Virus record (IMG/VR): IMGVR_UViG_3300045988_133151
Coordinates: 1 to 38,620 of that record
Length of the DNA stretch: 38,620 nucleotides
Reading direction: 5' to 3' (one strand)
Source of the DNA: a virus
The notes below the pieces were generated by a model, which did no database searches, was not told the origin of the DNA, and saw only the letters and a list, made by a program, of their open reading frames with translations. Each line of letters begins with the position of its first letter. Positions within the stretch are counted from its first letter, which is position 1. The position numbers and the translations under genes are program-made. Shown here one piece after another: positions 13,438 through 32,205 of this stretch.

Positions 13438-13662
13438 ATGATTGTTGAGTCTGATAATTGTTGCGAGTTTTGTGGCAAAAAGATGTTGACTCAAATTTAT
13501 AAAGAATCTTATGGAGAGTACAACATGTTTGATTTTTGTCCTGATTGCGACGGCAGACCTGGTGGAATGGCTTATGAAGATACAACGCGGCCTTTTGGCT
13601 ATTTGCCTCCAGAAAGAATATACAAAGAATTACGAGAAGAATATTATAAAAATGATGATTGA
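13438..13662 (+). CDS. Small zinc-ribbon protein (74 aa; CCEFCGKK...CPDCDG)
   Basis: The ATG at 13438 follows aaaggtgg. The Cys pattern is CxxC-x20-CxxC. Confidence 0.45.
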   Translation: MIVESDNCCEFCGKKMLTQIYKESYGEYNMFDFCPDCDGRPGGMAYEDTTRPFGYLPPERIYKELREEYYKNDD

Positions 13663-13680
13663 TAAAAGGAGAAATATTTA

Positions 13681-14718
13681 ATGAAGGATGTTCTAAATCA
13701 GACCAAGACAAGTTTTGTTTGCGTCGGCACTGCTTATGAAGTGTCTCTGGAAGAAAAGGTAAATTCTAATGGTGATGATTGTATCATGGGCACAATCATT
13801 CTTCGTGTTCCTGGCGGTACTCAGAGATTTAGAGTGTATAGCAATAAGTTTTACAAGTCCGGCAAGAACGCTGGTAAGCTACATTATCTATACAATGCTC
13901 TCGTCTCTGCAAACAACTGGAACACTGAAATCAATGGCTATGGTGGCGAACCCACTCGTGTTATGCTGAAAGGCGAATTTGATATTAACGATTATGCTTC
14001 TACAACTTCCAATCGTGTTGTTTCTACTCTTGATTTCAAAACCAAGAGCATTACTCATCGAGTCCCTGAAGATACTGAAGACGGTATGATTATGGAGTTT
14101 GACGGTATTTGTACCAAGTTTGCTCCTGAGATTAAGGATGATGAAGAGACTGGGCGGCTTGTTGGTCAGTTTATGGCTGTTAATTACAATGGTCAAGTCA
14201 TTCCTATCGACTTTGTGGTTGAAAAGGAGGGTGCGGAGCTAGTTGTAGACGGTGATAGCGAGATTGAGGCGCTATGCGTGGGTCAGACTAGAACTACTGT
14301 CTCTATGGATGTTCGTCATACCACTCAAGGCGTAGCAAAAGCTCCTGTCAAGAAGGCTGTTTTTGGTAAGTCTCATGGCCCGAAGATGGTTGATACTCCC
14401 CGTGAAATTGTTGAATATGTTCTGACTTCTTACGATTACGAAGCTGTAAGAGAACCAGAAGACGAAGATGAAAACTCTGTATGGATTAACCCCAAGACTA
14501 TTGCAGAAGCCGTGAAACAGCGTAGGATTCATCTGGAAGAACTTGAGCAATCTCTAAAGGATGGTACTGCGGCAAAGTCTAATAACACTCAGAAGAAGGC
14601 TAATGCGGCTTCTAGCGCTCTTAATATGGCTAAGAACGCAAGCCGTCCTTCTACTCCTATTAACGAAGACCCCTTTAATGGTGTAAATGTTGAAGATGTT
14701 TTTGGTGGTCTAATGTAA
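13681..14718 (+). CDS. Putative single-stranded DNA-binding protein (345 aa) with a long disordered acidic tail ending in EDPF...EDVF
   Basis: The RBS aaaggag precedes the ATG. The N-terminus is beta-rich (OB-fold-like), followed by a low-complexity linker. The C-terminal DPF/DVF tips resemble the SSB C-terminal D-x-P-F motif. It lies immediately upstream of a Sak4-like ATPase. Confidence that this is a gene is high; the function is inferred. Confidence 0.45.
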   Translation: MKDVLNQTKTSFVCVGTAYEVSLEEKVNSNGDDCIMGTIILRVPGGTQRFRVYSNKFYKSGKNAGKLHYLYNALVSANNWNTEINGYGGEPTRVMLKGEFDINDYASTTSNRVVSTLDFKTKSITHRVPEDTEDGMIMEFDGICTKFAPEIKDDEETGRLVGQFMAVNYNGQVIPIDFVVEKEGAELVVDGDSEIEALCVGQTRTTVSMDVRHTTQGVAKAPVKKAVFGKSHGPKMVDTPREIVEYVLTSYDYEAVREPEDEDENSVWINPKTIAEAVKQRRIHLEELEQSLKDGTAAKSNNTQKKANAASSALNMAKNASRPSTPINEDPFNGVNVEDVFGGLM

Positions 14719-14727
14719 TTTAAAATT

Positions 14728-14764
14728 GTCCTGGTAGATGGGGTTATTTTCTATCTACCAGGAC
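14728..14764. terminator. Perfect 12-bp hairpin gtcctggtagat/atctaccaggac (13-nt loop) with no downstream U-tract
   Basis: The arms are exact reverse complements. It is followed by tatataaaaaa on + rather than a T-run, so it may be a factor-dependent terminator or a processing or regulatory hairpin. Confidence 0.4.
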
Positions 14765-14804
14765 TATATAAAAAATAAATTAAGATAGGAGTTAAGTGAT
14801 AGTT

Positions 14805-15854
14805 ATGGCAAAAATTAACTTATTTGACCTTGAACCAGAAAATATTGTAGGGTCAATGGCAGGGCAAAAGTTGTATCTCTACTCTATGAATAATTGCGGC
14901 AAGACGAAGGTTGCTTCAAAGTTACCTAAAGCTCTTCTTATGATGTGTGAACCTGGTGGCAACGGTGTTAAATGCTTAAAGGTTCGTGTTGATAAGTGGA
15001 GTGTATTTAAGGATTTTGTCAATCAGCTTACGAGTGAAAAACTTGTTGTAGACCCCAATGACGAAAATGTTAAATTACCTCAATGGGAACTAATGCAACG
15101 TAAGATTCAGACAGTGGTTATTGATACTGTTGATGAATTGGTTGAATATGCTGAAACTGCAACTTGTCAGGAATATGGAGTAAGTGACCTTTCTGAAATC
15201 ACAGGAAAGGTCAATGGTTATTCTATTTATCGTAAAGATTTTAAAAAGCAAATCAATCGACTTTGTTCTTATGGATATACTTGCGTCTTTATTGGACATG
15301 AGGAGAGAGTAACTATTACTGATGAACTGACTGGTAAAGAATATGAATTTATTCAACCAAAGGGTAGTAGTAATGTGAAAGCATCTACTCGTTTTATTCG
15401 AGATATTTGTGATTTCTGTATTTATCTGAAACCCAATGGTATTGATTCTGCTGGTAACACTATTCTTTCTACTGGTATCAGCAAGCAAACAAAGCAGGTT
15501 TTTGCTCGAAGCCGCTATGACATGCAGACTTTGATTGAGCCGTTTACTGCAAAAAATCTTGAAGATGCAATCCTAAAGGCTATTGAAAAGACAGCGGAAG
15601 AAGAAGGTTCTGAAATCAACGAATGGAAGCGCGACAGTAGTAGCTATGATAAGCATGATTGGCTTGAACTAATTAAGCCTTATTTTGCCGCCATTGGTAA
15701 GCGCTATCCTGAAAAGCTGCAAGAAATTGTGATTACTGAAATTGGTGAAGGGCGCAAGCTGTCCGACATTCCAGAAGAAGACCTTGTTCCTTTGGAAAAT
15801 GTTTTCAATAAGCTAGTTACTTTTGCCTGTGATAGAAATATTATTGTAGACTAA
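14805..15854 (+). CDS. AAA_24 / Sak4-like RecA-fold ATPase (349 aa)
   Basis: Walker A variant YLYSMNNCGKTKVA, Walker B VVIDTVDEL, and the N-terminal MAKINLF...IYGxxGxGKT-like layout typical of the phage Sak4 family. The ATG at 14805 lies 13 nt after taggag. Confidence 0.6.
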   Translation: MAKINLFDLEPENIVGSMAGQKLYLYSMNNCGKTKVASKLPKALLMMCEPGGNGVKCLKVRVDKWSVFKDFVNQLTSEKLVVDPNDENVKLPQWELMQRKIQTVVIDTVDELVEYAETATCQEYGVSDLSEITGKVNGYSIYRKDFKKQINRLCSYGYTCVFIGHEERVTITDELTGKEYEFIQPKGSSNVKASTRFIRDICDFCIYLKPNGIDSAGNTILSTGISKQTKQVFARSRYDMQTLIEPFTAKNLEDAILKAIEKTAEEEGSEINEWKRDSSSYDKHDWLELIKPYFAAIGKRYPEKLQEIVITEIGEGRKLSDIPEEDLVPLENVFNKLVTFACDRNIIVD

Positions 15855-15929
15855 AAGACAAAGAGAAAAAGCGGCGAGACTGAATCTTACCGCTTTTTCT
15901 TTTTTGTACAAAATAACGAATAATATCCC

Positions 15930-15958
15930 TTGACTTCTTGCTCATAATTTGTTATACT
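15930..15958 (+). promoter_or_regulatory. Promoter TTGACT-N17-TGtTATACT
   Basis: -35 at 15930-15935 and extended -10 at 15950-15958. It is preceded by a terminator-like hairpin plus T-run at about 15869-15905. Confidence 0.5.
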
Positions 15959-15987
15959 AAAAGCACAAACAAGGGGAGGTCAACAAT

Positions 15988-16308: not shown

Positions 16309-16310
16309 AA

Positions 16311-16556
16311 ATGAAGCAAACATTCGCTGTAAAAATGACCAACTTTCTGAACGCTTTTGACTATTATTACTATTTTGGCTCTCTGGGGACTACTCTGGAA
16401 GGTATGTACCAGGCAGTAAAGCGTGGCAAACTGAAGAAATCCGTAGCTATTCGTATTCTGAGATATGGTCTGGCTAAAGATATTCATTACGGCTATAACT
16501 ATGCACAAATCAATGAAGTGGTATCTAATTTCAAGGAGGAGCTGAACGATGGCTGA
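16311..16556 (+). CDS. Hypothetical protein (81 aa), tandem paralog A
   Basis: FGSLGTTLEGMYQAVKRGKLKKSVAIRILRYGL aligns with LGSLDRTLACLRKNVEAGILKPTVAVQILKRGL of the next ORF. Confidence 0.5.
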   Translation: MKQTFAVKMTNFLNAFDYYYYFGSLGTTLEGMYQAVKRGKLKKSVAIRILRYGLAKDIHYGYNYAQINEVVSNFKEELNDG

Positions 16557-16785
16557 TTTTTTAAAACAGTATTATAATAACTATTTCTTAGGCAGTTTAG
16601 ATAGAACTCTTGCTTGCCTAAGAAAAAACGTAGAAGCGGGTATTCTTAAACCTACTGTTGCTGTGCAGATTCTCAAGAGAGGATTAAAGCAGGATAAATG
16701 CTTGAAGCTAACTAAAGAACAAGGTTTAGTGATTGCTGGAGAGTTTCGTAACGAACTGAGAGAGAAAGGGTTGTGGAAGAAATGA
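16549..16785 (+). CDS. Hypothetical protein (78 aa), tandem paralog B
   Basis: See the previous feature. The start overlaps the upstream stop. Confidence 0.5.
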   Translation: MADFLKQYYNNYFLGSLDRTLACLRKNVEAGILKPTVAVQILKRGLKQDKCLKLTKEQGLVIAGEFRNELREKGLWKK

Positions 16786-16964: not shown

Positions 16965-17049
16965 AAGTAAAAACTAAAATTGGCTACAAATTTTTTGAGA
17001 TGGATTTTCAAAAGATTAAATATTCTGAACGAGAAGAAGGAGGTTTAAT

Positions 17050-17277
17050 ATGAGACTTGTAGATGCAGATACAGCCCCTATTTATCTAAACAGTGCGGCT
17101 TGCGAACAAATCAAAAAAATGCCTACAGTTGAATTAAAGGTAGCACAAGAAGAAAGATGCGGCCTATGCAGTCGTAAGAAACAACTTTCTGGGCAAGGAA
17201 TGATGATGTCGGGAGACAAGATGAATTGTCATATTTTCATTGTTCATTATTGTCCTAATTGTGGAGCAAAGTGGTGA
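17050..17277 (+). CDS. Small zinc-ribbon protein (75 aa; CGLCSRKK...CPNCGAKW)
   Basis: The RBS gaaggagg precedes the ATG. Confidence 0.45.
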   Translation: MRLVDADTAPIYLNSAACEQIKKMPTVELKVAQEERCGLCSRKKQLSGQGMMMSGDKMNCHIFIVHYCPNCGAKW

Positions 17278-17280
17278 TAA

Positions 17281-17637
17281 ATGATGGTAACACATAATGA
17301 ATTTTATGAATGGCTTAAAGTATTTCCACATATTGAAAATAGTGAGAAGCCTACATTACCATTTGTTTTTTATAGAAATGGAGTGACTGATTTTCCTATT
17401 GAAACTAATTCTTTGTTTTGGAGAAATGATAATTTTGAAGTAACACTTTGCCCGTGGGTAAGTAAAGAAAAAAGTACATCAGATAAATTTTTTATATATT
17501 TTTATCAGTTGGACAAAGGTGTGTCTATGGAGTTTTTAACATTAAATCATTTGTATCGACTTTTCAATTCTTTAGCTAAATCTTCTATCTTGGAATTGAA
17601 AACAGCAATAAACGAATGGGAGAATTGCGATGGCTAA
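17281..17637 (+). CDS. Hypothetical protein (118 aa)
   Basis: ORF immediately following the previous stop. Confidence 0.45.
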   Translation: MMVTHNEFYEWLKVFPHIENSEKPTLPFVFYRNGVTDFPIETNSLFWRNDNFEVTLCPWVSKEKSTSDKFFIYFYQLDKGVSMEFLTLNHLYRLFNSLAKSSILELKTAINEWENCDG

Positions 17638-17884
17638 ACTTTCTGATATGGCTAAACTTTACGGAAATAAAGCCCCTTACTGTTGGACTGTTTATTCTGC
17701 TTTAAAAAAGCGTAAGTCAAAAAAAGACGGAAAAACAAGAAGAACTGCTGTTCAACTAACGGAAGAGTGTGGAATTAGTTTTAACACTCTTTATTTGGCT
17801 ATTGACCTTTTAGAAAAAGAAGGATATATTAGTAGAACACGCGCAGGAGATTTTAAGAGAAATACTTATGAAGTTCTAAAATAA
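17630..17884 (+). CDS. Winged-helix DNA-binding protein (84 aa); candidate replication initiator or helicase-loader accessory factor
   Basis: TAVQLTEECGISFNTLYLAIDLLEKEGYISRTR is a typical wHTH recognition segment, and the N-terminus is basic. It lies immediately upstream of the DnaB-like helicase module. Confidence 0.45.
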   Translation: MAKLSDMAKLYGNKAPYCWTVYSALKKRKSKKDGKTRRTAVQLTEECGISFNTLYLAIDLLEKEGYISRTRAGDFKRNTYEVLK

Positions 17885-17887
17885 GTA

Positions 17888-17916
17888 TTGACTTTGGGCG
17901 GCAAAAGTGGTATGAT
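17888..17916 (+). promoter_or_regulatory. Promoter TTGACT-N17-TGgTATGAT
   Basis: -35 at 17888-17893 and extended -10 at 17908-17916. Confidence 0.5.
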
Positions 17917-17940
17917 ATACAAAGAAAGGGGTAAAGCTAT

Positions 17941-18429
17941 ATGGGCAAGTCAATTTGTAAAGGTTGTGGTGAAAAGTTTCCAACAGAGACACGTTATATC
18001 GGAGAAAAATATAAACAGTTAAAGTTCTGTTGCCAAGGATGTTATCAGGATTATGTCAAAGAGCATAGTAACGAAATTGATAGGGATGATTTAATTAAAT
18101 ACTTGGATACAATTTATGAAAATCCAAATTATAGGATGCTTGGAGCGCAAATCAAATATTTTCGAGATGAGTGTAATGTATCTAGCTTGGCTTTGAGACT
18201 CATTATAGAATATGCTATCAAGTATGAAAATTATATTGTGCGGCAAGAAGACGGATTAGGCCAATTTTATCCTAGATACTATCAACCAGCCTTAGAGTTC
18301 TATAAAAAAATTGAAGAAAACAAAAAGTATGCAAGTGAGCATCCTGACTTGCTTACTCCTGAAGTTATTCGTGTAAAGCCCAAAAATAGTATGCAAAAAT
18401 TTTTTACAAAAGCAGAACTAGAGCTTTGA
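17941..18429 (+). CDS. Hypothetical protein with an N-terminal zinc ribbon (162 aa; CKGCGEKF...CCQGCYQDY)
   Basis: The RBS aaagggg precedes the ATG. Confidence 0.5.
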   Translation: MGKSICKGCGEKFPTETRYIGEKYKQLKFCCQGCYQDYVKEHSNEIDRDDLIKYLDTIYENPNYRMLGAQIKYFRDECNVSSLALRLIIEYAIKYENYIVRQEDGLGQFYPRYYQPALEFYKKIEENKKYASEHPDLLTPEVIRVKPKNSMQKFFTKAELEL

Positions 18430-18448
18430 GTAAGGAGTGTACGCAATA

Positions 18449-20032
18449 ATGGAAAACACTTTATATGACAGAAATGCCGCGAGTGCGTTGTTGGGCTGTT
18501 TGATGAAAAATCCTGCGCTATTATTGAATCCTTCTTTTCCTTTATATAAAAAGGATTTTGAGTGCGTTGCAATGCACGGGATTCTTTTTATTTGTATCAG
18601 AGAACTTTTGGAAGCAGGAACTAGAGAAATTAGTGCCTTAGAAATTGATACCGTAGCAAAAACCAATTCTCAGTATTACGACATTCTTGTTCAAAATGAT
18701 TATATTGGATATATTGATGCAATCAAAGAATTAGCTAATCATAATAACTTTGAATATTTTTATACAGTTGTTAGGAAGTATTCATTGCTTAGAGAAATGA
18801 AAGAAAATGGCATTTCTATTACTGATTTCTTTGACCCTATTACTGGACAGGCAACGAATTTAGAAAAATTTGAATCTATTACTCTTGAAGAAATGGTCGC
18901 AAGAGTAAACAACATAGTTTCAAATCTGAGAAATAAATACGATGTACGCTTTGTCCGCAATCAAATTTCAGTGGGCGAAGATACGGAAGGGCTACTAGAA
19001 TTTTTTGAAAAAGCTCCTGCTTTTGGTGCTTGCTTACAAAGCGGAGTGTTAAGCACTATTGTTCAAGGATGGAATAGAGGGCACTTATTGTGTCGCTCTG
19101 GTCCTTCAGGAGCGAGTAAAACAAAGCAGGGCGTGGGTGATTTATGTATGGTTTCCGCCCCTGCCTATTACTCAGAAGAAGCAGGAGATTTTGTAGTAAA
19201 TCCAAATTATCAAGGCCCAGGATTCTATATTCACACAGAAATGGATAGTAGAACGGAAGTTGAACCAGCATTTTTAAGTTTTGTTGCTTGCGTAGAATAT
19301 AGAAAAATGAGAAATGGTTTGCTTACAAAAGAAGAAAGACTTCGTGTTCTTAAAGCAGGTGAAATTTTAAAAAAGTCAAATTTACAAATTATTGATATGC
19401 CTGAATACACTTCTGCTTCGCTAGAACAAAAAATTCGTGATATGGCTGAATTTGGTTGTCCTTTTGGCGTGTTTGACTATGTGGAATTAAACAGTTCTCT
19501 TGGTGCGGAGTTTAAAAGTATATCCAATATGCCAGTAAGAGAAGATTTGGTGTTAAAATCTTTAGTGACAGACCTTAAAGGTTACGCAGAAAAATATAAT
19601 GTTGGTATACTTACTGGAACTCAGCTTAATGACACTTGGAAAGAAAAGGCTTTCCCTGATGAATCTTGTCTTTCTGGCGCGAAGTCTATTAAAAACAAGC
19701 TGGATGCGGGAACTATTATTATTCCTTTTAATCAAAGAAGAAAAGAAATGGAGTGTTTAAAAGCTTTTCTACCTAAACCTCGCTTTGGTGAACCTGCACC
19801 GATGATGCCTAATATGATAGAATATGTATATAAATCCCGTTTCGGCGTATACGGCGACGAAAAAGTTAAAATTATATATTATTTTGACAAGGGTACTTCA
19901 AGAAGATACGATTTCTTTTGTGCCGATGATAAGGATAAAATAGTAAATGTTCCTAAAACGGAATTAGAACCTGGAGGTATTTATAATGCGAATGACGCAG
20001 AATGTGAAGCAAGTATTAAAGAAACTGTATGA
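18449..20032 (+). CDS. DnaB-like replicative helicase (527 aa) with a non-canonical P-loop
   Basis: The N-terminal domain (NAASALLGCLMKNPALL...FECVAMHGILFICIRELLEAGTREISALEI) resembles the DnaB N-domain. The Walker-A-like segment is RSGPSGASKTKQG (GxxxxSKT rather than GxxxxGKT). The Walker B/DnaB-like segment is GVFDYVELNS. The ATG at 18449 lies 12 nt after taaggag; the track GTG at 18437 sits inside the RBS. Confidence 0.65.
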   Translation: MENTLYDRNAASALLGCLMKNPALLLNPSFPLYKKDFECVAMHGILFICIRELLEAGTREISALEIDTVAKTNSQYYDILVQNDYIGYIDAIKELANHNNFEYFYTVVRKYSLLREMKENGISITDFFDPITGQATNLEKFESITLEEMVARVNNIVSNLRNKYDVRFVRNQISVGEDTEGLLEFFEKAPAFGACLQSGVLSTIVQGWNRGHLLCRSGPSGASKTKQGVGDLCMVSAPAYYSEEAGDFVVNPNYQGPGFYIHTEMDSRTEVEPAFLSFVACVEYRKMRNGLLTKEERLRVLKAGEILKKSNLQIIDMPEYTSASLEQKIRDMAEFGCPFGVFDYVELNSSLGAEFKSISNMPVREDLVLKSLVTDLKGYAEKYNVGILTGTQLNDTWKEKAFPDESCLSGAKSIKNKLDAGTIIIPFNQRRKEMECLKAFLPKPRFGEPAPMMPNMIEYVYKSRFGVYGDEKVKIIYYFDKGTSRRYDFFCADDKDKIVNVPKTELEPGGIYNANDAECEASIKETV

Positions 20033-20382: not shown

Positions 20383-20385
20383 TAG

Positions 20386-21432
20386 ATGGAAAGACGGATA
20401 GTCTATTTGGACAGTGCAGCCACTATGCTTCCCACTTTTTGGTCAAAAGATTTTATGGGATACTCTGGAAATCCCAATGCAAAGCACAAAATGGGACAAA
20501 TGGTGCGATATAAATACGAAGAGTGTAAACAGAGACTAAAAGATATTCTTGGAGTGTCTAGTGGAGAAATTTTCTTTGCTAGATGCGCCACAGAAATTGC
20601 CAATGGACTGTGGCTAGAATCTTTTTTTGGTAATAGAGGTCGTAATTTTGATGTTTGGTGTAGCCCTTGGGAGCATGATTCATGTTATGTTGATTCTTCT
20701 GAATTTAGCAAGGATAGAAATGTGTTTGCTACAGATTGTTATCAAATTGTATTTTGGCAATATGTAAATCACATGACAGGAAACCAATTTTTTATGGAGT
20801 TACCTGAAAAGCATGACAACACTTTGCTATTCAGCGACTTCACTGCGGCAATCGGCAAGGCTGAAATTCCAAAGATTGAAGGAAACTTTGACGCAATCTG
20901 GTGTTCTGGACATAAGTTTGGAGCAGAAGGTGGCGGTTGGCTTTGGGTATCTGATAAAGCTTTAGATTGGTTGCCTGGAATCAAATATTCTTTTGGCGGC
21001 ACTCCTAATGTTCCACAGATTGTGGCCTTGACAACTGCGACAGAATATGCTATAATGGGGACAAAGGAAAACTTTAAGCATTATGTTTTTCTTTGGACTG
21101 CGGTTCAAAATCAACTATTTGACGAAGGCATTGAGCATGAAATTATTGGAGACAACAACCTGCCTATTACTTGTGCTGTAATGACTCTACGTTTTCCTGG
21201 AATGAACGCAGATGCTCTTGCTACATATCTCAGCTACAGGAAAATTTATGTCTCTATGGGAAAATCTGCTTGTTCAGAAGATGATGATTTTAGAGCCTTG
21301 GAATCTTGGGGTTTGACCAAAGAGCAAGCAGAAGAGTGCATCCGAATTTCTTTTGACCCTGACAGCACAACGGCAGATACAGATGATTTTGTTAAAGCAG
21401 TGGCGGCGTTTAAAGAAGAATATTTAAATTAA
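20386..21432 (+). CDS. Class-V aminotransferase fold, NifS/IscS-family cysteine desulfurase homologue (348 aa)
   Basis: IVYLDSAATMLPT corresponds to IYLDYSATTPV. SGHKFGAEGGGWLWV corresponds to SGHKIYGPKGIGALYV, preserving the PLP-Lys. SMGKSACSE corresponds to SSGSACTS, preserving the catalytic Cys. A C-terminal IRISF corresponds to IRFSL. The protein is shorter than bacterial IscS (about 404 aa). The RBS gggagg precedes the ATG. Confidence 0.7.
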   Translation: MERRIVYLDSAATMLPTFWSKDFMGYSGNPNAKHKMGQMVRYKYEECKQRLKDILGVSSGEIFFARCATEIANGLWLESFFGNRGRNFDVWCSPWEHDSCYVDSSEFSKDRNVFATDCYQIVFWQYVNHMTGNQFFMELPEKHDNTLLFSDFTAAIGKAEIPKIEGNFDAIWCSGHKFGAEGGGWLWVSDKALDWLPGIKYSFGGTPNVPQIVALTTATEYAIMGTKENFKHYVFLWTAVQNQLFDEGIEHEIIGDNNLPITCAVMTLRFPGMNADALATYLSYRKIYVSMGKSACSEDDDFRALESWGLTKEQAEECIRISFDPDSTTADTDDFVKAVAAFKEEYLN

Positions 21433-21444: not shown

Positions 21445-22530
21445 ATGGGGCAGATTGATGTAAAAAAATTAAAAGCAAGTCTGTCCCTTTTAGATATTGA
21501 GTATGTAATGAATCAGCTTGGGATTCCTATGTATAGTAAGGGCAACAGAGAATGGATTTTCTATCCAGGAACTAAATACAAAGACCCTTATGCAGGGAAA
21601 CCCAAGCTGTATTTTTATACTGATTCCAAAATATTCATAAGTTACACTGAGTCATGCTCTATGGACATTATAGGTGTAGTACAAAAAAGACTGGCGTTAC
21701 TGAATGAATCTTGCAGTTTCTTGGATGCAGTTAATTATATTCTTGAGACAACAGGAAAAGAGCCTACTGGTTTACATGAATTAACTAAATCTCCGTTTTA
21801 TGATTGGGAAAGTGATTTAGGCAAATTTTCTAAGTTTGGCGGCAGAGGCAGTGGCTTAAAATGTTATGATGCTAGTGTATTGAATCATTTATCCCAATTA
21901 TACCCTTTAAGATGGATTGATGAGGGTATAAGCTGGGACTCTATGAAAAAATATCGCATAGGCTTTTACGACAGAATGAATCAGACCACCATTCCGGTTT
22001 TTGGAAATGACGGAGGGCTGTTGGGGATTCGGTGTAGGAATTGGACAGAAGATATGCTTGCACAAGCCAAATACATTCCATTAACATTACTTGATGGAAC
22101 AACTTATAAATTTCCTACACACAGTGTTTTATATGGATTAAATTATAATTGGCCCACCATTGAAAGAAAGAAAGAGGTGTGGATTGCTGAAGGTGAAAAA
22201 TCAGTCCTGAAATTAGATACTTGGTATGGAACAGAATCTTGTGCTGTGGCGATGTTTGGAAATAATTTGGGACTTCAAAGAAGACAACAGTTGTTGAGTC
22301 TTGGTGTGAACAAGGTTTTTTATATCCCTGACCATGATTTTGTGGGACTTGGAGACAAAGAATTTGACTTATGGACAACTAAACTAAATAAATTTTGCGA
22401 GTTGTGGCATGGATTTGCTACTGTCAACGTTTTGCTTGATACTAAAGGTTATTTTGGCGCAAAAGACAATGCAACTGATTATAATAAAGAAATTTTTACA
22501 GAGTTGTTGGAAAATTCAGTTCAAATGTGA
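21445..22530 (+). CDS. DnaG-like primase (361 aa) with a TOPRIM domain
   Basis: The TOPRIM motif is VWIAEGEKSVLKLD...FYIPDHD. The N-terminus is only zinc-ribbon-like (single Cys, degenerate). The RBS aaggagag precedes the ATG. Confidence 0.65.
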   Translation: MGQIDVKKLKASLSLLDIEYVMNQLGIPMYSKGNREWIFYPGTKYKDPYAGKPKLYFYTDSKIFISYTESCSMDIIGVVQKRLALLNESCSFLDAVNYILETTGKEPTGLHELTKSPFYDWESDLGKFSKFGGRGSGLKCYDASVLNHLSQLYPLRWIDEGISWDSMKKYRIGFYDRMNQTTIPVFGNDGGLLGIRCRNWTEDMLAQAKYIPLTLLDGTTYKFPTHSVLYGLNYNWPTIERKKEVWIAEGEKSVLKLDTWYGTESCAVAMFGNNLGLQRRQQLLSLGVNKVFYIPDHDFVGLGDKEFDLWTTKLNKFCELWHGFATVNVLLDTKGYFGAKDNATDYNKEIFTELLENSVQM

Positions 22531-22541
22531 GGAGAAAAAAT

Positions 22542-22913
22542 ATGAGCCTTTTTGTGGAATATCGTGGTGATGATTCTATTGTTATGAATTGTCCTCTTCC
22601 TAAAGTTGGGAGTATTGGAATGGTTGCTGAAGAAAAGGGAATTTTTTATAAAGTGAAATTTCCTTACCGATGCTTTGATGAACTTGTAAAGAAAGAAGAA
22701 CTGATTGTTACTTTAGTTAAGAGTCAATTTGTTGATACAGATTTATTCTTACTCGACAAGCTTAACGAATGGGCAGAAAAAGAGACAGAAAAGATGTTTG
22801 ATAAGCTTATGGATTTTATGCAAAAGCATGGAAATGACAAAGAAAAAATTGAAGATATTTTTGGTGAAGAGTTAAGTGAAAAAATGTTTGACTTTTATAA
22901 GAAAAATAAATAA
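22542..22913 (+). CDS. Hypothetical protein (123 aa) carrying one copy of a ~45-aa motif that is triplicated in the next gene
   Basis: The ATG at 22542 lies 7 nt after gaggag. PKVGSIGMVAEEKGIFYKVKF...CFDE resembles two segments of the 22991 product. Confidence 0.5.
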   Translation: MSLFVEYRGDDSIVMNCPLPKVGSIGMVAEEKGIFYKVKFPYRCFDELVKKEELIVTLVKSQFVDTDLFLLDKLNEWAEKETEKMFDKLMDFMQKHGNDKEKIEDIFGEELSEKMFDFYKKNK

Positions 22914-22930
22914 AAAGCGCTTGACAATTC

Positions 22931-22959
22931 TGAAAAAATGTGATATATTATAAATAGTC
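22931..22959 (+). promoter_or_regulatory. Promoter TTGACA-N17-TGaTATATT
   Basis: -35 at 22931-22936 and extended -10 at 22951-22959. Confidence 0.5.
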
Positions 22960-22990: not shown

Positions 22991-23818
22991 ATGACGTTTG
23001 TAGCTTTTACCAGTGAAGAACTAGCGACCGGCCCCCTAGCCGACATCTATCCTCGGTTAGGTAGTGTAGGAATTATCATTGGTCAAATGGACGATGAATA
23101 TAATGTTCAATTCTCTCCTGATTGCTTTGATGATGGTTCCCATGAAAGCGCAGAAGAATGTGCGCTAATTCTTAGTAGAGATGAGTTTGAGAGTGCAGAT
23201 ATTTTTGCGGCACAGGTACTAAACAACTATAACGTAGCCAATTCTGTTCCCACGGGTTCACTTGGAGAAGAATCTTGTAATTGCGATTCTAACTGCAAAT
23301 CTGATTATTGCAGTTACGATGAAAGAGAAGAAGGTGAACTTACAGAAGAAGATGCCGAAAATTTAGAGATTTATAAGATGCTTCTTCCCAAGTTCAAGAA
23401 GAATGGTTTTATCACGGAAGACAATAAGATTGAAGAGGGCCTTGATGTTGTTAGAATGGTTTCTTTGGCCTATAAGAGTGCTTACAAGCGCGGAAAAGTA
23501 GGAAGACCTTTCTTTTTTAAGAAGGATAGTCAAGCTAGATGGAGAGAGATGAAGCCAAATGATGTTTACAACACTAGCCTTAGAGTTATGTATGTAAACA
23601 AGCCTAGTGAGGCTCAGTATCCAGAAGGGCCTTGGGATGATGGAAAGGGTTGTTTCCCGCCTGAAGGCACTGTCGGAAGAATGTCTCGTCCCGCCTGGGA
23701 CGATGCTGAAAGTGATGAAGATATTTGGGTTCAATTTGAAGGAACCGAATACGAACACACTTGCTACGGACAGATGTTTGATTGCTTTCTTGTGAGAGAG
23801 GTAGATGAGGATGATTAA
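22991..23818 (+). CDS. Hypothetical protein (275 aa) with N- and C-terminal copies of the GS(V/I)G...VQF...CFD motif and a Cys-rich acidic middle
   Basis: PRLGSVGIIIGQMDDEYNVQFSPDCFDD occurs at the N-terminus and PEGTVGRMSRP...IWVQFEGTEYEHTCYGQMFDCF at the C-terminus. The RBS ggagg precedes the ATG. Confidence 0.55.
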   Translation: MTFVAFTSEELATGPLADIYPRLGSVGIIIGQMDDEYNVQFSPDCFDDGSHESAEECALILSRDEFESADIFAAQVLNNYNVANSVPTGSLGEESCNCDSNCKSDYCSYDEREEGELTEEDAENLEIYKMLLPKFKKNGFITEDNKIEEGLDVVRMVSLAYKSAYKRGKVGRPFFFKKDSQARWREMKPNDVYNTSLRVMYVNKPSEAQYPEGPWDDGKGCFPPEGTVGRMSRPAWDDAESDEDIWVQFEGTEYEHTCYGQMFDCFLVREVDEDD

Positions 23819-24242
23819 AATCATCAAAAAGCCTGAAGAAGTAAAGGAAGTTAAGTGTCAATTTTGCGGTTGTGTGTTAGAATACAGCAATGCAGATATT
23901 ATTCAAACGACAAACGCCGCGTCTAGTATTATTTGTCCGAACTGTGAAAACATCATTACACTGTCCAAAGAAGAGCATTTCAAACCTGATGTTTGGCCTG
24001 ATTTTTACAGTTATGATGGGCCTAACGTAAAGCGTTTAACTGACGAAAAGATTAGTCAATATATTGACAAATGTGTTAAAAACACAATGCAAAACAAAGA
24101 TATGGCGTGTATGGCAAGTGGAGATACTTTTGTTTTAAGTCTTCCTGATTGCGATAATTCGGGAGAAATTGAAACTATTTCTGTTATTGTTGCACAAGGG
24201 TACAAAGAAGGCTTGGTCTATGAAAGAGAGGGACTTTGTTGA
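23811..24242 (+). CDS. Zinc-ribbon protein (143 aa; CQFCGC...CPNCEN)
   Basis: The ATG at 23811 lies 10 nt after gagagagg. Confidence 0.5.
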   Translation: MIKIIKKPEEVKEVKCQFCGCVLEYSNADIIQTTNAASSIICPNCENIITLSKEEHFKPDVWPDFYSYDGPNVKRLTDEKISQYIDKCVKNTMQNKDMACMASGDTFVLSLPDCDNSGEIETISVIVAQGYKEGLVYEREGLC

Positions 24243-26966: not shown

Positions 26967-26974
26967 ATAAAACT

Positions 26975-27002
26975 TGACAAACCTTCTGTCTTGTGGTACA
27001 AT
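26975..27002 (+). promoter_or_regulatory. Promoter TTGACA-N16-TGgTACAAT
   Basis: -35 at 26975-26980 and extended -10 at 26994-27002. Confidence 0.5.
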
Positions 27003-27030: not shown

Positions 27031-27270
27031 ATGCTGGTTTATAGGTTTGCTCCAATTAGTGGGCTATTTCATAAATGCAGTCGTTGTAAAAACAAAAAGA
27101 GCAACTGGAAACGACTTTACCGCAGTTGTTTCGATGAAACATACGTCTGGCTTTGCAGTAATTGTGTAAAATCTCTTTCAGCAAGAGCGCCTATTACACC
27201 AACTATAGAAGCTTTAAGTGTTTCATGCAAATTAGATGAACAGATTGGTATCTTTGTTAAAATTGTTTGA
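27031..27270 (+). CDS. Small zinc-ribbon protein (79 aa), paralog of 27279..27509
   Basis: CSRCKNKKSNWKRLYRSCFDETYVWLCSNC aligns with CDVCKCRPKWRLYFNNEKTDFVFLCEEC. The RBS taggagg lies 7 nt before the ATG. Confidence 0.45.
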   Translation: MLVYRFAPISGLFHKCSRCKNKKSNWKRLYRSCFDETYVWLCSNCVKSLSARAPITPTIEALSVSCKLDEQIGIFVKIV

Positions 27271-27278
27271 GGTGAATA

Positions 27279-27509
27279 ATGTTAATATATAAAAGACTAA
27301 AATTATTTGAATCCTTTGGAAAAACTTGTGATGTATGTAAGTGTAGACCTAAATGGCGATTATATTTCAATAATGAAAAAACTGATTTTGTTTTCCTTTG
27401 CGAAGAATGTCTTCGTACACAACAAGGCAAGCGAGTTCCGCCAGAAGATATGCAGGAATTTGTTTTAAAAGTTAAAACGGTAGGTATGGGAATATTTGAG
27501 GTAGTATAA
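27279..27509 (+). CDS. Small zinc-ribbon protein (76 aa)
   Basis: See the previous feature. The RBS gaggtga precedes the ATG. Confidence 0.45.
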   Translation: MLIYKRLKLFESFGKTCDVCKCRPKWRLYFNNEKTDFVFLCEECLRTQQGKRVPPEDMQEFVLKVKTVGMGIFEVV

Positions 27510-27982
27510 TGAGTGAATTTATTGAATTTAACACATATCAAGAAGAATTAAAACGATGTACCAAATGCAATAGACGAATTGCTAGGTTTAAGGATATAGA
27601 TGGTAAATGTTATTGTACACAATGTGCAGACAAAGACCCTACGTTATTTGGAAAATGTTATTATGGTAATAATAGAGAAGATTTATATACTATTGCGCGA
27701 CATGAGTGTAGAGACAGTACAGCAAAAGGCGAAGAATTGTTGGATTACAGACAAGAAATAAGATATTGCGACCCAAAAAAATTCTTTCGTTATCATTGTG
27801 AACTACCAGAAAGAGGATGGTATATTGTAGAACATAAATTCGACTGGGATTGGGGTTCTGAGTGGGATGAAGGAATACTGGAAGTAAATTACTGCCCTTT
27901 TTGTGGCAAAAAATTGGAGGTTCTTAATGAAAACAGAGATAGCAAAAGAAATGTTGAGAATAGTCCAAACAAGATTGAATAA
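27509..27982 (+). CDS. Zinc-ribbon protein (157 aa; CTKCNRR...CTQC; CPFCGKK)
   Basis: The RBS gaggtag precedes the ATG. There are two CxxC pairs plus a C-terminal CxxC. Confidence 0.5.
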   Translation: MSEFIEFNTYQEELKRCTKCNRRIARFKDIDGKCYCTQCADKDPTLFGKCYYGNNREDLYTIARHECRDSTAKGEELLDYRQEIRYCDPKKFFRYHCELPERGWYIVEHKFDWDWGSEWDEGILEVNYCPFCGKKLEVLNENRDSKRNVENSPNKIE

Positions 27983-28130
27983 TCGTGGAGTATTAAAGCC
28001 TATTGAATATAAAACACTAGAAATTTGTTGTGGGATTTTGAACGGTTATGCTATTGTAGAAAAGTGTGATGAGTTAGTTAGACAAGGAGAAAATGATGAT
28101 TGGTGGGGTGAGGAGGATGAAGAATGGTAG
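27927..28130 (+). CDS. Small hypothetical acidic protein (67 aa)
   Basis: The ATG at 27927 lies 6 nt after ggagg. The gene overlaps the previous gene's 3' end out of frame. Confidence 0.35.
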   Translation: MKTEIAKEMLRIVQTRLNNRGVLKPIEYKTLEICCGILNGYAIVEKCDELVRQGENDDWWGEEDEEW

Positions 28131-31100
28131 ATACTTATTTTTCACCACACAACCATAGTGATTATAGTAATCCAAGTTTAGGTTTTAGTGATTCTATTTG
28201 TAAAGTGAGTGGCTTGATTCAAAGAGCTTATGATATTGGTTTACAAGGTGTTACTATCACTGACCATGAATCACTTTCTTCTTTTATTGAAGCATTAAAT
28301 TATTATGAGTCAATGGAGCAAACTAGACCTTTTACTTTAGCTCTGGGCAATGAAATTTATCTTTTAACTGAAGAAGAGTATAAAGAAAATCGTTATAATA
28401 ATGGTACGATTCCTTATTTTCATTTCATTCTTATAGCAAAAGATGATGAAGGTTATCGACAACTTTGTAAATTATCCACAAGAGCTTGGGAACGAGCTTA
28501 TATGAAAGGTTGTTGGCGTAGACCAACTTTAATGGAAGACTTGGTTGAAATAATCCAACCAAACCAAGGTCATGTGTTTGGACTGAGCGCCTGTTTAGGC
28601 TCTCGTATTGACAAAATGCTTCTCGATAAAAACAAAGCATTATTTGAAAAAACTGGGCACTTGGCACAGATTCAACAGATTTTTGGTAAGGGTAATTTCT
28701 ATTTAGAAGTACAACCTTCAGAAATAAAAGGAAATGAACAAAGTATTGTCAATACAATGCTTATGAAAATAGCTAAACAACTGGAATTGCCTATTGTTGT
28801 CAGTACAGACAGTCATTATTTAAAAAAAGATGATGCTATTATCCACGAAGTTTTTTTAAAAAGTCAAGACGGTGAAAGAGAAGTAAGTGATTTTTACGCC
28901 ACTGCCTACATGATGGAACCATCTGATTTGCGAGAACATCTACAACACGAATTTAATGATGAAGAAATTGACTTTTTAATGTCAAATACAATAGAGTTAG
29001 GTCAACGCATAGGTAAATATAGTTTTAAACATAAACCAATTATTCCTGAAATTCCTGAAGAAAAAATTCCTGATTTTAAAACCCAACATACTTTTAAACA
29101 ATATTATTCTGAGTATGAATATTTTGGTTATTATGCTAAAGAAAATTTAGATATACATGAGCGTTATTTCTTTTACCAAATTGAGCAGGGGCTAAAGCAA
29201 AAAGTTGTATTGAAACACAAGGACGTAAAGACCTATGTTGACCGGCTTAATACTGAATGGAGAGAACTAAAGTTAATTAGTGATGAATTAAATGGTTTCA
29301 TGGTAGCATATTACTCAACTATGAGTAAAATAGTAGACCTTATGTGGGAAGCTAACAGTATAGTAGGCCCAGGAAGAGGTTCTTCTTCTGCTTTTTTAAC
29401 TTGCTATTTATTAGACATTACAGCTATAGACCCCGTTCCATTAGGCGATTATATGCCTTATTGGAGACATCTTAGTGCAGAAAGAAAAGCGGAACTTCCT
29501 GATATTGACACTGATTCAGAACCCAGTAAAAAATACGCTATTATAGAAGAAGTCAAAAAGTTTTTTGGAGAAGATAAAGTATTAAATGTTGCTACTTTTT
29601 CTTCAATTTCATCAAAAATAGCTATTGAAAAGGCTTGTCGTGGTTTAGGGATTGATGATACGACTGCGGCATATTTAAAATCTTTGATTCCTGTTAATAG
29701 AGGCAAAATTGCTAAACTTAAAGATTGTTTATACGGTAGTGATAAAACACCTGTAGTTCACGCTCTCGTCGAAGAAATAAAAAAATATCCTAATCTTGAA
29801 AAATGTGCTTTGGGATTGTGCGACATTATTTCTCAAAAAGGACTACATGCCGCAGGTCTTACGGTCAGCAATAAGCCATATACAGAATATTGTAGCATGA
29901 TGAGAGCGCCCAACGGAACCCCTTGCACTTGCTACAATCTTTGGGACGCAGAGGCAGTAAGTTTAGTTAAATTTGATTTGTTGACGGTTGATGCTCTTCA
30001 AAAAGTTCATGGTGCATTAGACGCTATGGCAAATGATGGAACCATTGAATGGCAGGGCAATCTTCGAGACACATACAACAAATATATTCACCCAGACGTT
30101 ATTGATTATGACACACCTGAGATGTGGGATTGTATCAATAAAATGTATTCTATATTTCAGTGGGCCACACCTTTGTCTGTCGCGGCACTAAAGCAAATTC
30201 AGCCAACAACTTTGTCAGAACTTTCAGCAGGAAATAGCCTAATTAGACTTATGCCAGATGGAGACGGTGAAACACCTCTTGATACCTATGTTCGCTATAA
30301 AAATCATCCTGAACAATGGAGCGTAGAAGCTTCTGCGTATGGGCTTAATGAAGAAGAAAAATCAATCATAGCCAAATATACCAAAGATGCTCATTATCTT
30401 GCAGATTGTCAAGAAAAGCTTATGCGACTTTCTATGGATGAGCATGTTGCTGGTTATACTCTAAAAGAAAGCAATCAACTTCGCAAAAGTGTAGCTAAGA
30501 AAGATGAAGCTTTGCAAGAAAAAGCCAAGCAACAATTTTATGAATACGGAAAAAAGCAAGGCACTAGACAAGTAATGCTTGATTATGTTTGGAATGTACT
30601 GTTTAGTAAATCATTTGGATATTCTTTTTCAAGCATCCACAGTTGGGCTTATTCAATGATTGCTCTTCAGGAACTAAACATTTTTTATCATTACGGTGCT
30701 ATATATTGGAACATTGGTTGTTTGCTTACAGAAACAAGTGACGAAGGGTCTGGTTCTGGTGCAGATTACGGTAAGATAGCAAAAGCAATTTATAAAATGC
30801 TTGCATTTGGTGTAAATATTGTATCTCCTAATGTTAATGAGTCTAAAGATAACTTTACTCCAAACGCAAAGGAGAATACTATTTATTACGGATTAGCTAC
30901 AATTTCTGGAATTAACTCTCAGATAGCAAATCAAATCATTTCTATGCGGCCTTATGATTCATTTTTAGATTTTTATCGCAAAAATACATTTCCTGGTTCT
31001 CTAGTTACAAAGTCTAAAATTATTCAACTAATCAAAGCCGGATGTTTTGATTGTTTTAACACAAATAGAATTAAAGTGATGCAAGAATATTTTTGTTTAT

Positions 31101-32008
31101 CTACGCCACAAAAAACAAAGCTTACAACATCTAATCTGCCTGAGATGATTAAAATTGGTGTTGAAATTCCAGAAGAACTTATCAAACCTTATAATTTTAA
31201 GAAGTATGTTTGTCAAAAGCAATTCTTTTACAGTATACATCCTTTGTCTAAATCTAAAAAATTATATAAAGTAGACACTACTGTAATGTCATATTGTGAG
31301 GAATATTTTATATCCGTAATGAAAGAAGGAGCAGATTATTGGTTTGTTGATAGCGAGGTTGTTATTTGCGACAAATCTATTGACAAATGCTTTAAACTTG
31401 TTTTTAATATGTTAAAATCTTGGCTACAAAGACCTGAAACAATCAAAGAATATAACAAAAAGGCTATCATTGCTGCGTACAACACATTAGATTGCGTAGA
31501 TGTAGATAGATGGGCAATGCAATCTACGAGTTATTATCATAACAACGGACATGAATTAAAGAATTTAGATTTTAAGCGTTATGGTATTAGTAGATTTTCT
31601 GACCTTTCAGAAGAACCAGTATTTGTTGAAAAAAACTTTGGACAGCGTTCTTGGCGGCAATATGAAATCAGCGCCATAGCTGGAACATTGATTGCTAAAG
31701 ACGATACTAAGCATATAATTACTTTGCTAACTACTGATTATGATGTAGTAAACTGTAAACTTACTAGAGAAGCCTATGCTCATTATAAACGAGTGATTAG
31801 TTCTGGTAGTGGAAAAGATAAAGTAGTGTATGATGATGCTTGGATTCAAAGAGGGTCTTTGCTGATTGTTTGTGGCTATCGAAATGGTGATGATTTCAGG
31901 TGCAAGAAATACAAAAACAGTGTATATGACCATCAAATGATATTGATTAAACATGTATATAAAGATGGGAGTGCAGACTTACAGACAGAAAGGGTGTTGA
32001 TGGAATAA
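28124..32008 (+). CDS. dnaE: DNA polymerase III alpha subunit, DnaE-type (1294 aa), with an N-terminal PHP domain
   Basis: The PHP motif YFSPHNHSDYS is present. The palm/fingers region GPGRGSSSAFLTCYLLDITAIDP corresponds to [23 protein letters not shown]. The length and domain order match DnaE. The RBS gaggagg lies 7 nt before the ATG. Confidence 0.9.
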   Translation: MVDTYFSPHNHSDYSNPSLGFSDSICKVSGLIQRAYDIGLQGVTITDHESLSSFIEALNYYESMEQTRPFTLALGNEIYLLTEEEYKENRYNNGTIPYFHFILIAKDDEGYRQLCKLSTRAWERAYMKGCWRRPTLMEDLVEIIQPNQGHVFGLSACLGSRIDKMLLDKNKALFEKTGHLAQIQQIFGKGNFYLEVQPSEIKGNEQSIVNTMLMKIAKQLELPIVVSTDSHYLKKDDAIIHEVFLKSQDGEREVSDFYATAYMMEPSDLREHLQHEFNDEEIDFLMSNTIELGQRIGKYSFKHKPIIPEIPEEKIPDFKTQHTFKQYYSEYEYFGYYAKENLDIHERYFFYQIEQGLKQKVVLKHKDVKTYVDRLNTEWRELKLISDELNGFMVAYYSTMSKIVDLMWEANSIVGPGRGSSSAFLTCYLLDITAIDPVPLGDYMPYWRHLSAERKAELPDIDTDSEPSKKYAIIEEVKKFFGEDKVLNVATFSSISSKIAIEKACRGLGIDDTTAAYLKSLIPVNRGKIAKLKDCLYGSDKTPVVHALVEEIKKYPNLEKCALGLCDIISQKGLHAAGLTVSNKPYTEYCSMMRAPNGTPCTCYNLWDAEAVSLVKFDLLTVDALQKVHGALDAMANDGTIEWQGNLRDTYNKYIHPDVIDYDTPEMWDCINKMYSIFQWATPLSVAALKQIQPTTLSELSAGNSLIRLMPDGDGETPLDTYVRYKNHPEQWSVEASAYGLNEEEKSIIAKYTKDAHYLADCQEKLMRLSMDEHVAGYTLKESNQLRKSVAKKDEALQEKAKQQFYEYGKKQGTRQVMLDYVWNVLFSKSFGYSFSSIHSWAYSMIALQELNIFYHYGAIYWNIGCLLTETSDEGSGSGADYGKIAKAIYKMLAFGVNIVSPNVNESKDNFTPNAKENTIYYGLATISGINSQIANQIISMRPYDSFLDFYRKNTFPGSLVTKSKIIQLIKAGCFDCFNTNRIKVMQEYFCLSTPQKTKLTTSNLPEMIKIGVEIPEELIKPYNFKKYVCQKQFFYSIHPLSKSKKLYKVDTTVMSYCEEYFISVMKEGADYWFVDSEVVICDKSIDKCFKLVFNMLKSWLQRPETIKEYNKKAIIAAYNTLDCVDVDRWAMQSTSYYHNNGHELKNLDFKRYGISRFSDLSEEPVFVEKNFGQRSWRQYEISAIAGTLIAKDDTKHIITLLTTDYDVVNCKLTREAYAHYKRVISSGSGKDKVVYDDAWIQRGSLLIVCGYRNGDDFRCKKYKNSVYDHQMILIKHVYKDGSADLQTERVLME

Positions 32009-32205
32009 TGAAATGTATTTGGTGTGGAAAAGAAGCTATAGGGATGCCCCTGGTTATGTTTGGACAAAGAGTGGGCGACACTTATATTTGTGCATCTTGT
32101 GGCTATCATTGGGATAATTACGGAAAGAGCTATTCTTCGGACTGGAAACCTGACAAAGAATCGTTATGGAGCAAAATAAAGAAATTTTTTAGAAAATTGA
32201 AATAA
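32008..32205 (+). CDS. Small zinc-ribbon protein (65 aa; CIWCGKE...CASCGYHW)
   Basis: ORF that abuts the dnaE stop (ATAATG). Confidence 0.45.
   Translation: MKCIWCGKEAIGMPLVMFGQRVGDTYICASCGYHWDNYGKSYSSDWKPDKESLWSKIKKFFRKLK

Follow-up and report, generated by a model that had tools for sequence, protein, structure and literature searches.

The window analysed here is the whole 38,620-nucleotide (nt) stretch of the IMG/VR virus record IMGVR_UViG_3300045988_133151, in which the long open reading frames (ORFs) all lie on the + strand. Our subject is a set of eight short ORFs for which a sequence-only reading had claimed paired CxxC motifs. A uniform ORF call recovered all of them on the + strand, each with at least two CxxC motifs, and the paired motifs are spaced 24–31 residues apart. 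They are named below by their first position:

13438–13662, + strand, 74 amino acids (aa), CEFC/CPDC
17050–17277, + strand, 75 aa, CGLC/CPNC
17941–18429, + strand, 162 aa, CKGC/CQGC at the N-terminus
23805 or 23811–24242, + strand, 145 or 143 aa, CQFC/CPNC
27031–27270, + strand, 79 aa, CSRC/CSNC
27279–27509, + strand, 76 aa, CDVC/CEEC
27509–27982, + strand, 157 aa, CTKC/CTQC with an additional C-terminal CPFC
32008–32205, + strand, 65 aa, CIWC/CASC

The protein called 23805 has 145 aa, or 143 aa if translated from the ATG at 23811. A Shine-Dalgarno-like sequence is present 5–10 nt 5' of every ATG in the set. TAATG stop/start overlaps join 27279 to 27509 and the DnaE-type polymerase gene to 32008, and 23805 overlaps both the upstream ORF 22991 and the downstream RecJ-like gene 24236. 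Orthologues of each ORF were found in every related contig covering its slot (up to 16 contigs), these contigs being close relatives (L002–L008 and L013–L017, protein identity 90–98%) and a divergent clade (L009–L012, with DnaE 87% and the small proteins 49–82% identical). Loss of the Cys pairs among orthologues, which the sequence-only reading had named as grounds for giving up its view, was not seen: every CxxC pair is retained, in the divergent clade at identities of 55–59% (27031), 66% (27279), 54% (27509), 49% (23805) and 78–82% (32008). Such divergent orthologues (49–82%) are available for five of the eight ORFs; the L009–L012 contigs do not include the slots of 13438 and 17050, and the 17941 orthologue in that clade is cut off before the finger, the N-terminal finger being compared in close relatives only. 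Nei-Gojobori ratios of nonsynonymous to synonymous substitution rates (dN/dS) range from 0.03 to 0.25 for all eight with informative comparators, much like the values of DnaE (0.06) and RecJ (0.10).

Paired CxxC motifs occur in nine of the 49 window ORFs of ≤170 aa (the ninth being 10518–10685), against an average of 0.25, with 3 as the highest count, when residues are shuffled within the same proteins (2000 shuffles). The shortness of the eight genes, and the lack of a significant match for six of them in the profile libraries searched, could suggest chance reading frames, or CxxC pairs that are accidents of composition. We consider there to be next to no likelihood of this, given the shuffle test (nine observed where 0.25 are expected), the ligands kept in orthologues at 49–82% identity in five of the eight, the dN/dS values of 0.03–0.25, and the ribosome-binding sites and translational coupling. 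From the Cys pairs kept in orthologues, the dN/dS ratios, the Shine-Dalgarno sequences and the orthologue coverage we conclude that the eight ORFs are real, selectively maintained and expressed-looking small proteins.

The copy number, claimed to be unusual, is indeed high when set against related cultured phages. With the same caller applied to the early/replication regions of four of them, paired CxxC motifs were found in 5 of 154 small ORFs, as opposed to 9/49 in the window (odds ratio 6.7, Fisher p = 0.001). The individual counts of small ORFs with paired CxxC, together with that of a divergent relative, are as follows:

SPbeta: 3 of 67
GR1: 2 of 38
PMBT24: 0 of 25
CB457P2: 0 of 24
L011, the divergent relative: 4 of 21, a density similar to that of the window

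In this clade, numerous small accessory genes have been inserted among the core genes of replication, and the high count reflects this. A general tendency of phages of anaerobes towards Cys-rich small proteins was considered and rejected on the zero counts of PMBT24 and CB457P2, both phages of Enterocloster. Two further Cys-rich products were seen along the way. The ninth window ORF, 10518–10685, encodes 55 aa with CTSCKKC...CKKC and is conserved in L005, and sister phages carry a 121-aa CSYC...CPNC protein (L002 17348–17713, also in L003 and L004), the slot of which is occupied in the window by an unrelated 142-aa ORF, 35478–35906.

The sequence-only reading had treated the eight as one expanded family, and this did not survive comparison: only 27031 and 27279 (types A and B below), plus a type C found in sister phages, could be linked. 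In an all-vs-all blastp search with permissive settings, the sole match was between 27031 and 27279 (33% over 49 aa). In hhalign comparisons of the orthologue alignments the same two proteins were paired with a probability of 84.5% over 51 columns; the other appreciable pairs covered only 5–14 columns, essentially the (Y/F)CPxCG(K/A)K knuckle, and two longer alignments (32 and 42 columns) were at chance level (probability ≤ 11%). Separate hidden Markov models (HMMs) of A, B and C, searched against the ~3000 ORFs of all loci, matched one another, and none of the other six zinc ORFs was reached at E ≤ 10.

The knuckles themselves are of different kinds. Ribbon-type CPxCG knuckles are found in 13438, 17050, 23805, 32008 and at the C-terminus of 27509, whereas a helix-like segment (LCxxCxRxL, CCQGCYQDY) comes after the second CxxC in 17941, 27031, 27279 and at the N-terminus of 27509. 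In both low-confidence AlphaFold models the second CxxC sits at a helix start, as in a treble clef. We infer that the set is structurally mixed, with classic two-knuckle ribbons on one side and treble-clef-like domains on the other, although these fold classes follow the sequence pattern only, the models having predicted local distance difference test (pLDDT) scores of 37 (27509) and 53 (27031) and the alignments being shallow. A Foldseek search with the low-confidence 27031 model (pLDDT 53) gave no match at E ≤ 0.001 and is uninformative.

Could the eight nevertheless be one paralogous zinc-ribbon family, duplicated in the phage and diverged beyond easy recognition? They have the CxxC-Xn-CxxC pattern in common, 27031 and 27279 are demonstrably duplicated, and small genes have often been duplicated in tandem within the window, where three further pairs were found (30–33% identity, E 3e-6 to 6e-12 among the three):

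12274–12513 and 12519–12779, + strand, tandem small paralogues
16311–16556 and 16549–16785, + strand, tandem small paralogues
22527–22913 and 22991–23818, + strand, tandem paralogues at their N-termini

Tandem duplication is, however, a general habit of the region and not special to zinc proteins. No similarity beyond the knuckles was detected by blastp, hhalign or HMM; spacings, domain architectures and knuckle types differ; 17941 and 23805 belong to separate wider families with relatives in other phages that do not carry the other seven; and few such genes are seen in related phages with the same core module. We regard a single family as very improbable, and at sequence level the idea is largely refuted. 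The eight ORFs appear to represent at least six independent lineages with no single duplicated ancestor.

That 27031 and 27279 are tandem paralogues, as claimed, was confirmed by alignment, hhalign and reciprocal HMM searches. Profile E-values are 1e-10 to 1e-14 between A and C, 6e-4 to 1e-2 between A and B, and 1e-4 to 4e-3 between B and C. The three types have in common an MLxY start, the CxxC-x(21-24)-LCxxC layout, their length, and their slot, flanked by a CmpB-like membrane gene on one side and 27509 on the other. When 5.8 billion proteins were searched with a profile, only 16 clusters were returned, all of them A, B or C types of this phage clade. The members in the window and the contents of the slot across relatives are:

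27031–27270, + strand, type A, 79-aa Cys4 protein, CxxC-x22-LCxxC
27279–27509, + strand, type B, 76-aa Cys4 protein, dN/dS 0.09–0.18
Slot with A and B: the window, L013, L016 and L009–L012
Slot with C alone: L003, L004, L014, L015 and L017; C is 37–40% identical to A over the coding sequence, with the Cys kept
Slot with an IS200/IS605 element (TnpA and TnpB) after codon 11 of a C-type gene, followed by B: L002 and L008
26974–27002, + strand, promoter TTGACA-17-TGgTACAAT with a near-consensus extended -10 element; AGGAGG lies 7 nt before the ATG at 27031

This promoter starts the gene string 27031-27279-27509-27903-DnaE-32008. The mechanical ORF start at TTG 26974 coincides with its -35 hexamer, the true start being ATG 27031, and the apparent N-terminus common to alleles A and C is in fact promoter and ribosome-binding-site DNA. 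The slot is thus promoter-proximal, stands at the head of the DnaE operon, and is both swapped by recombination and prone to insertion sequences (IS). The DnaE gene is exchanged as well: two alleles, 51–55% identical, occur in phages that are otherwise 95–98% identical (window 28124–32008 compared with L003, L004, L015, L016 and L017). Here the gene of the replicative polymerase has been cleanly replaced in mosaic fashion. Co-evolution of A, B and C with the DnaE allele was considered and rejected, as L014 combines C with DnaE type 1 and L016 combines A and B with type 2. The slot type is therefore not tied to the DnaE allele, which argues against a specific partnership of A or B with DnaE.

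Mobile elements related to the one in this slot are found elsewhere. An IS605-family TnpB (OrfB_IS605, TNB and helix-turn-helix (HTH) domains) is encoded at 8980–10083 of the window (and ~7900–8700), at a site that is empty in L005; the element in the 27031-type slot of L002 and L008 (L002 7450–9140) is related to it, with a TnpB 85% identical and an IS200-type TnpA, and a further TnpB, 50% identical, lies at L003 18057–19202. SPbeta (L019) encodes YorZ (31206–31418, 70 aa, CDIC...NCCESCAKGY), which resembles 27031, 27279 and C in layout and length and is the best match of the C profile outside the family (E = 0.08), a resemblance for which homology is not demonstrated.

The setting of the eight is a replication module. 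Its DnaE-type polymerase, 28124–32008, shares 46% identity with the polymerases of two Enterocloster phages, PMBT24 and CB457P2, and 37% with YorL of SPbeta, as also with the polymerase of Geobacillus phage GR1. The gene order of the SPbeta replication module is matched by the window, where the core genes are:

14796, + strand, Sak4/YorG-like ATPase
17941, + strand, YorH-like protein
18437–20032, + strand, DnaB/YorI-like helicase
21445–22530, + strand, YorJ-type primase
24236, + strand, RecJ/YorK-like protein
28124–32008, + strand, DnaE/YorL-like polymerase

In SPbeta, yorG to yorL are contiguous; in the window many small genes lie between the same core genes. It is true, as the sequence-only reading had it, that the zinc ORFs cluster around dnaE and the helicases, but this says little, since the whole window is an early/replication module. 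No DNA-level similarity to any cultured phage was found; the host is probably related to Lachnospiraceae/Enterocloster. By exact-sequence look-up, the window proteins occur on dozens of gut-metagenome contigs of 117–126 kilobases (kb), and a scan of GTDB species representatives with the RecJ-like protein revealed no prophage.

Among the eight, 17941 is the one with a clear counterpart in SPbeta. It is 27% identical to YorH over 162 aa (E 2e-5) and 30% identical to the GR1 protein encoded upstream of DnaB (E 2e-9), the latter being 32% identical to YorH (E 5e-16); it matches phrog_4680 at E 3.6e-12, and a homologue is found in the same position in PMBT24. In the protein (dN/dS 0.03), a C4 finger at the N-terminus is followed by a C-terminal domain that is helical and conserved. 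Its stop codon lies 7 nt before the DnaB-type helicase gene 18437–20032, with a promoter of its own at 17888–17916. A YorH-family gene directly 5' of a DnaB-type helicase gene is found in the window, SPbeta (yorH-yorI), GR1, PMBT24, L039, L041 and L050; in L009–L012 one HTH_36 gene stands between the two. Length, full-length similarity, helical domain and position agree between 17941 and the proteins of SPbeta, GR1 and PMBT24, but the finger differs, being C4 in 17941, C3H in YorH, duplicated in PMBT24, and with a CxxxC first knuckle in GR1. We conclude that 17941 is an SPbeta YorH-family protein and, as such, a fixed component of the replication module. Judged by its position, it would most likely act in helicase loading or as an origin/initiator accessory. 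The likeness provides a placement rather than a functional assignment, and it applies to one of the eight ORFs only. Our literature search on YorH found nothing, and profile searches of the PDB with the alignments of the YorH and 23805 families, and with 27509, gave nothing below E = 0.17.

An HTH_36-type protein also adjoins the YorH-like gene in this clade. In the window (17630–17884) it has 84 aa and a weak match, and in L011 (606–1133) it has 175 aa and a match at E 1e-13; it is a candidate for the initiator of the module or for a protein binding its origin.

A second placement was obtained for 23805 (dN/dS 0.14–0.17). Its N-terminal ribbon (CQFCGC...CPNC) is joined through an FPxxFY linker to an alpha/beta domain at the C-terminus, which contains a GDT motif. 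Exhaustive HMMER searches of 1.84 billion representatives yielded 87 clusters at 50% identity (E ≤ 1e-3), nearly all of them of 125–150 aa, and the family HMM recovers the window protein at 4.9e-37. Across 62 aligned members with 27% mean column identity, only C18, C21, C44, C47 and one Gly are invariant, P45, P65, F67, Y27 and V129 being nearly so. The family overlaps in part with phrog_2834 and phrog_8736; some members reach Pfam zinc-ribbon models (E 1e-5 to 1e-7), and the C-terminal domain has no Pfam family.

Gene neighbourhoods of the family were compared in 20 contexts. In nine of these (L025, L028, L030, L035, L041, L042, L044, L050 and L051) the gene lies directly 3' of, and often overlaps, a cysteine desulfurase gene. 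The primase gene comes immediately after it in seven of the nine; in L030 one gene lies between, and in L035 a RecJ-like gene takes the place of the primase gene. In the window clade, 23805 has moved three genes downstream and adjoins the RecJ-like gene. There are departures in both directions, as the visible DNA of L039, L040, L043 and L047 contains a desulfurase gene and no copy of the family, and L032, L033 and L034 have the family with no visible desulfurase. The 23805 family is thus a widespread two-domain family of DnaB-primase-RecJ-DnaE modules with its usual place between desulfurase and primase.

The desulfurase of the window is itself well defined, as follows:

20386–21432, + strand, divergent NifS/IscS-like cysteine desulfurase, Pfam Aminotran_5, with an SGHKF motif containing the lysine for pyridoxal phosphate and a GKSACSE catalytic loop

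Its NCBIfam matches (NifS 1e-20, IscS 4e-16, DndA 2e-10) all remain below the curated cut-offs. A desulfurase is conserved between DnaB and primase in a whole group of gut phages (L025, L030, L035, L039–L051), and distant copies occur in phage contigs of 150–216 kb; we found no literature on phage cysteine desulfurases in replication modules.

The neighbouring primase is peculiar in another respect. The CHC2 domain of DnaG/YorJ-type primases is a zinc ribbon in the same module, often adjacent to a 23805-family gene, although 23805 has no sequence similarity to it. In the window primase (21445–22530, residues ~40–72) this N-terminal zinc domain has lost three of its four ligands (PGTK..SYTESC), whereas they are intact in SPbeta (VCH..CYTEC), GR1 (ICH..CFTDGC) and PMBT24 (ICH..CYHC). 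Three or four ligands are likewise lost in L011, L025, L028, L030, L040–L044, L047, L050 and L051; the C-H...C-x2/3-C pattern is kept in SPbeta, GR1, PMBT24, L034 and L039, and the surrounding KLYFY.D.K.F is conserved. Where primase ligands are lost, the 23805 family is present in 10 contexts and absent in 3, and where they are intact it is present in 2 (L033 and L034) and absent in 5, which does not establish a link (Fisher p = 0.06 over the 20 contexts, not corrected for phylogeny).

From this arrangement, 23805 would probably partner either the desulfurase or the primase. Its Cys4 site may accept sulfur or iron-sulfur (Fe-S) in a replication-linked route of sulfur transfer in the phage or, alternatively, may be a zinc module supplied in trans to the ligand-less primase; to the latter, the family members found with intact primases (L033, L034) and the ligand-less primases found without the family (L040, L043, L047) are exceptions. 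That the family is a dedicated partner of the phage desulfurase, of the adjacent primase, or of both is a proposal we put forward tentatively and hold to be rather improbable.

As far as the database searches reach, the remaining four proteins (13438, 17050, 27509 and 32008) are confined to this phage clade. For the six proteins other than 27031 and 27279, tblastn against 50,697 phage records gave no match, bar one at E = 0.06. ORF 13438 (CEFCGKK...FCPDCDG) has orthologues 96–97% identical with the Cys kept (dN/dS 0.12). It comes first in its operon, ahead of the 345-aa ORF 13681 and of 14796, the gene of the Sak4/YorG-like ATPase, and is preceded by the following feature:

13381–13409, + strand, strong promoter TTGACA-17-TATAGT with TG, directly 5' of 13438

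No Pfam, PHROG, PADLOC or NCBIfam family was found for 13438, its sole weak resemblance being to an 89-aa ORF in L035 (47% over 19 aa). In 17050, CGLC is followed by YCPNCGAKW at the extreme C-terminus, and both pairs are kept in seven distinct orthologues (dN/dS 0.06 against L016); it has no Pfam or PHROG family and no phage match by tblastn at E ≤ 1. In a metagenome-assembled genome in GenBank, both 17050 (DAK70120.1) and 32008 are named 'TFIIS', and neither name is supported: 17050 has no match to Pfam Zn_ribbon_TFIIS, and 32008, at 11.1 bits (E = 0.37), falls short of the cut-off of 21.

ORF 27509 combines an N-terminal C4 module (C17, C20, C36, C39) with a DWDWxSEWDE stretch that is invariant in 10 orthologues of 54–80% identity. 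A second metal site is probably formed by the C-terminal CPFC (C129, C132) with conserved C67/C87 or H65. Among 5.8 billion proteins, only six clusters were recovered, all from this clade, and no phage relative was found. Finally, 32008 (CIWCG...CASCGYHW, with a basic C-terminal tail) starts in overlap with the DnaE stop codon; its orthologues are 78–97% identical with the Cys kept (dN/dS 0.03), and it stays 95–97% identical in L003 and L004, where DnaE is the 52% allele. In IMG/VR it occurs on three contigs, of this clade only, and it matches phrog_2945 at E 5.7e-4.

Strong promoters lie directly 5' of 13438, 17941 and 27031, and also of the 22991-23805 pair, so that three of the eight open a transcription unit. 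The region is divided into short operons by seven promoters of the near-consensus extended -10 type (TTGACA-17-TGnTAxxxT):

13381–13409, 15930–15958, 17888–17916, 21028–21056, 22921–22949, 26974–27002 and 32209–32237, all on the + strand, extended -10 promoters

With 12/12 matches, the promoter at 21028 is located within the desulfurase gene and ~390 nt before the primase gene.

These early operons behind strong sigma-A-type promoters invite the thought that several of the small ribbon proteins serve host takeover or anti-defence by inhibiting nucleases, restriction or the RNA polymerase of the host, in the manner of Lar, TraR/Orf73 and zinc-binding anti-defence proteins. The proteins are small, clade-restricted and fast-evolving, the allele replacement and IS insertion in the A/B/C slot are typical of accessory hotspots, and phage TraR-like small zinc-finger proteins are known to reprogram RNA polymerase (PMC9239242). 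Lar and TraR/lambda Orf73 also resemble the eight in size, Cys4 site and early-region location (PMC9239242). The roles in modulating RNA polymerase or nucleases, or in anti-defence, proposed in the sequence-only reading nevertheless gained no positive evidence, in searches that included no library of anti-defence proteins. None of the eight passes any PADLOC, NCBIfam or Pfam model, and this includes those of DksA/TraR, Lar, TFIIS and HNH; Pfam zf-dskA_traR gave no match at E ≤ 1, and none of their sequences shows the hallmark of DksA/TraR, a coiled helix at the N-terminus with an acidic tip. Only 27509 approaches Lar_restr_allev (PF14354), over 19 residues (125–143) at 14.5 bits against 28.6 (E = 0.044). 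For HNH there is no Pfam match and no His-Asn-His between the Cys pairs, the weak PHROG 'HNH' matches of 17941 (E 0.013–0.035) covering the finger only. Furthermore, the low dN/dS shows no arms-race positive selection at whole-gene level, and 17941 and 23805 keep conserved positions among replication genes across distant phages. We therefore consider a takeover or anti-defence role for several of them unlikely.

A more general likeness is to the zinc-ribbon 'mu-proteins' (Zn_Ribbon_1, Zn_Ribbon_TF, LysW, YjdM; haloarchaeal HVO_2753/HVO_0758-type), which have two CxxC knuckles 20–30 residues apart in 65–80 aa. The window proteins match these models weakly and below threshold, through the ligands only, and the models describe a structural motif, not a function.

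We consider it likely that the eight are real, unrelated Cys4 proteins of at least six lineages that form part of the accessory content of the early and replication operons. In each, the Cys4 (CxxC...CxxC) metal site would be the structural core of a very small domain, zinc being the most probable metal, and the proteins would serve as accessory or adaptor subunits, each with a different protein or nucleic-acid partner. Several points weigh against this account, in addition to the low-confidence models behind the fold classes. Short, fast-evolving domains can lose all similarity, so that a common ancestry of some of the ribbons cannot be strictly excluded. The enrichment is marginal against distant metagenomic phage loci (4/62 with the ascertained gene removed, p = 0.07), and one such locus, L032, reaches 4/26, a density similar to that of the window. 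We infer the functions of all eight, expression is judged from sequence features, and the metal is not readable from the sequence, rubredoxin-like Fe or Fe-S sites using the same knuckles and the phage possessing a desulfurase. The density of paired-CxxC genes is high for this phage group and not unique among gut phages; what the window contains is an ordinary kind of phage accessory gene at unusual density.

Nothing in this should surprise a phage specialist; it offers one modest lead that deserves following. For annotation, the lesson is that a common CxxC-Xn-CxxC pattern is no evidence of a gene family. A small family restricted to the clade has been defined, its three alleles occupying a slot prone to recombination, and two of the eight proteins have received concrete placements, 17941 in the YorH family 5' of the helicase gene and 23805 in a widespread family encoded between desulfurase and primase. 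The lead, which is testable, is that a Cys4 protein is encoded as a neighbour of both a cysteine desulfurase and a primase. For an abundant human-gut phage, the analysis singles out a short list of small proteins that are conserved, uncharacterised and attached to its replication module.

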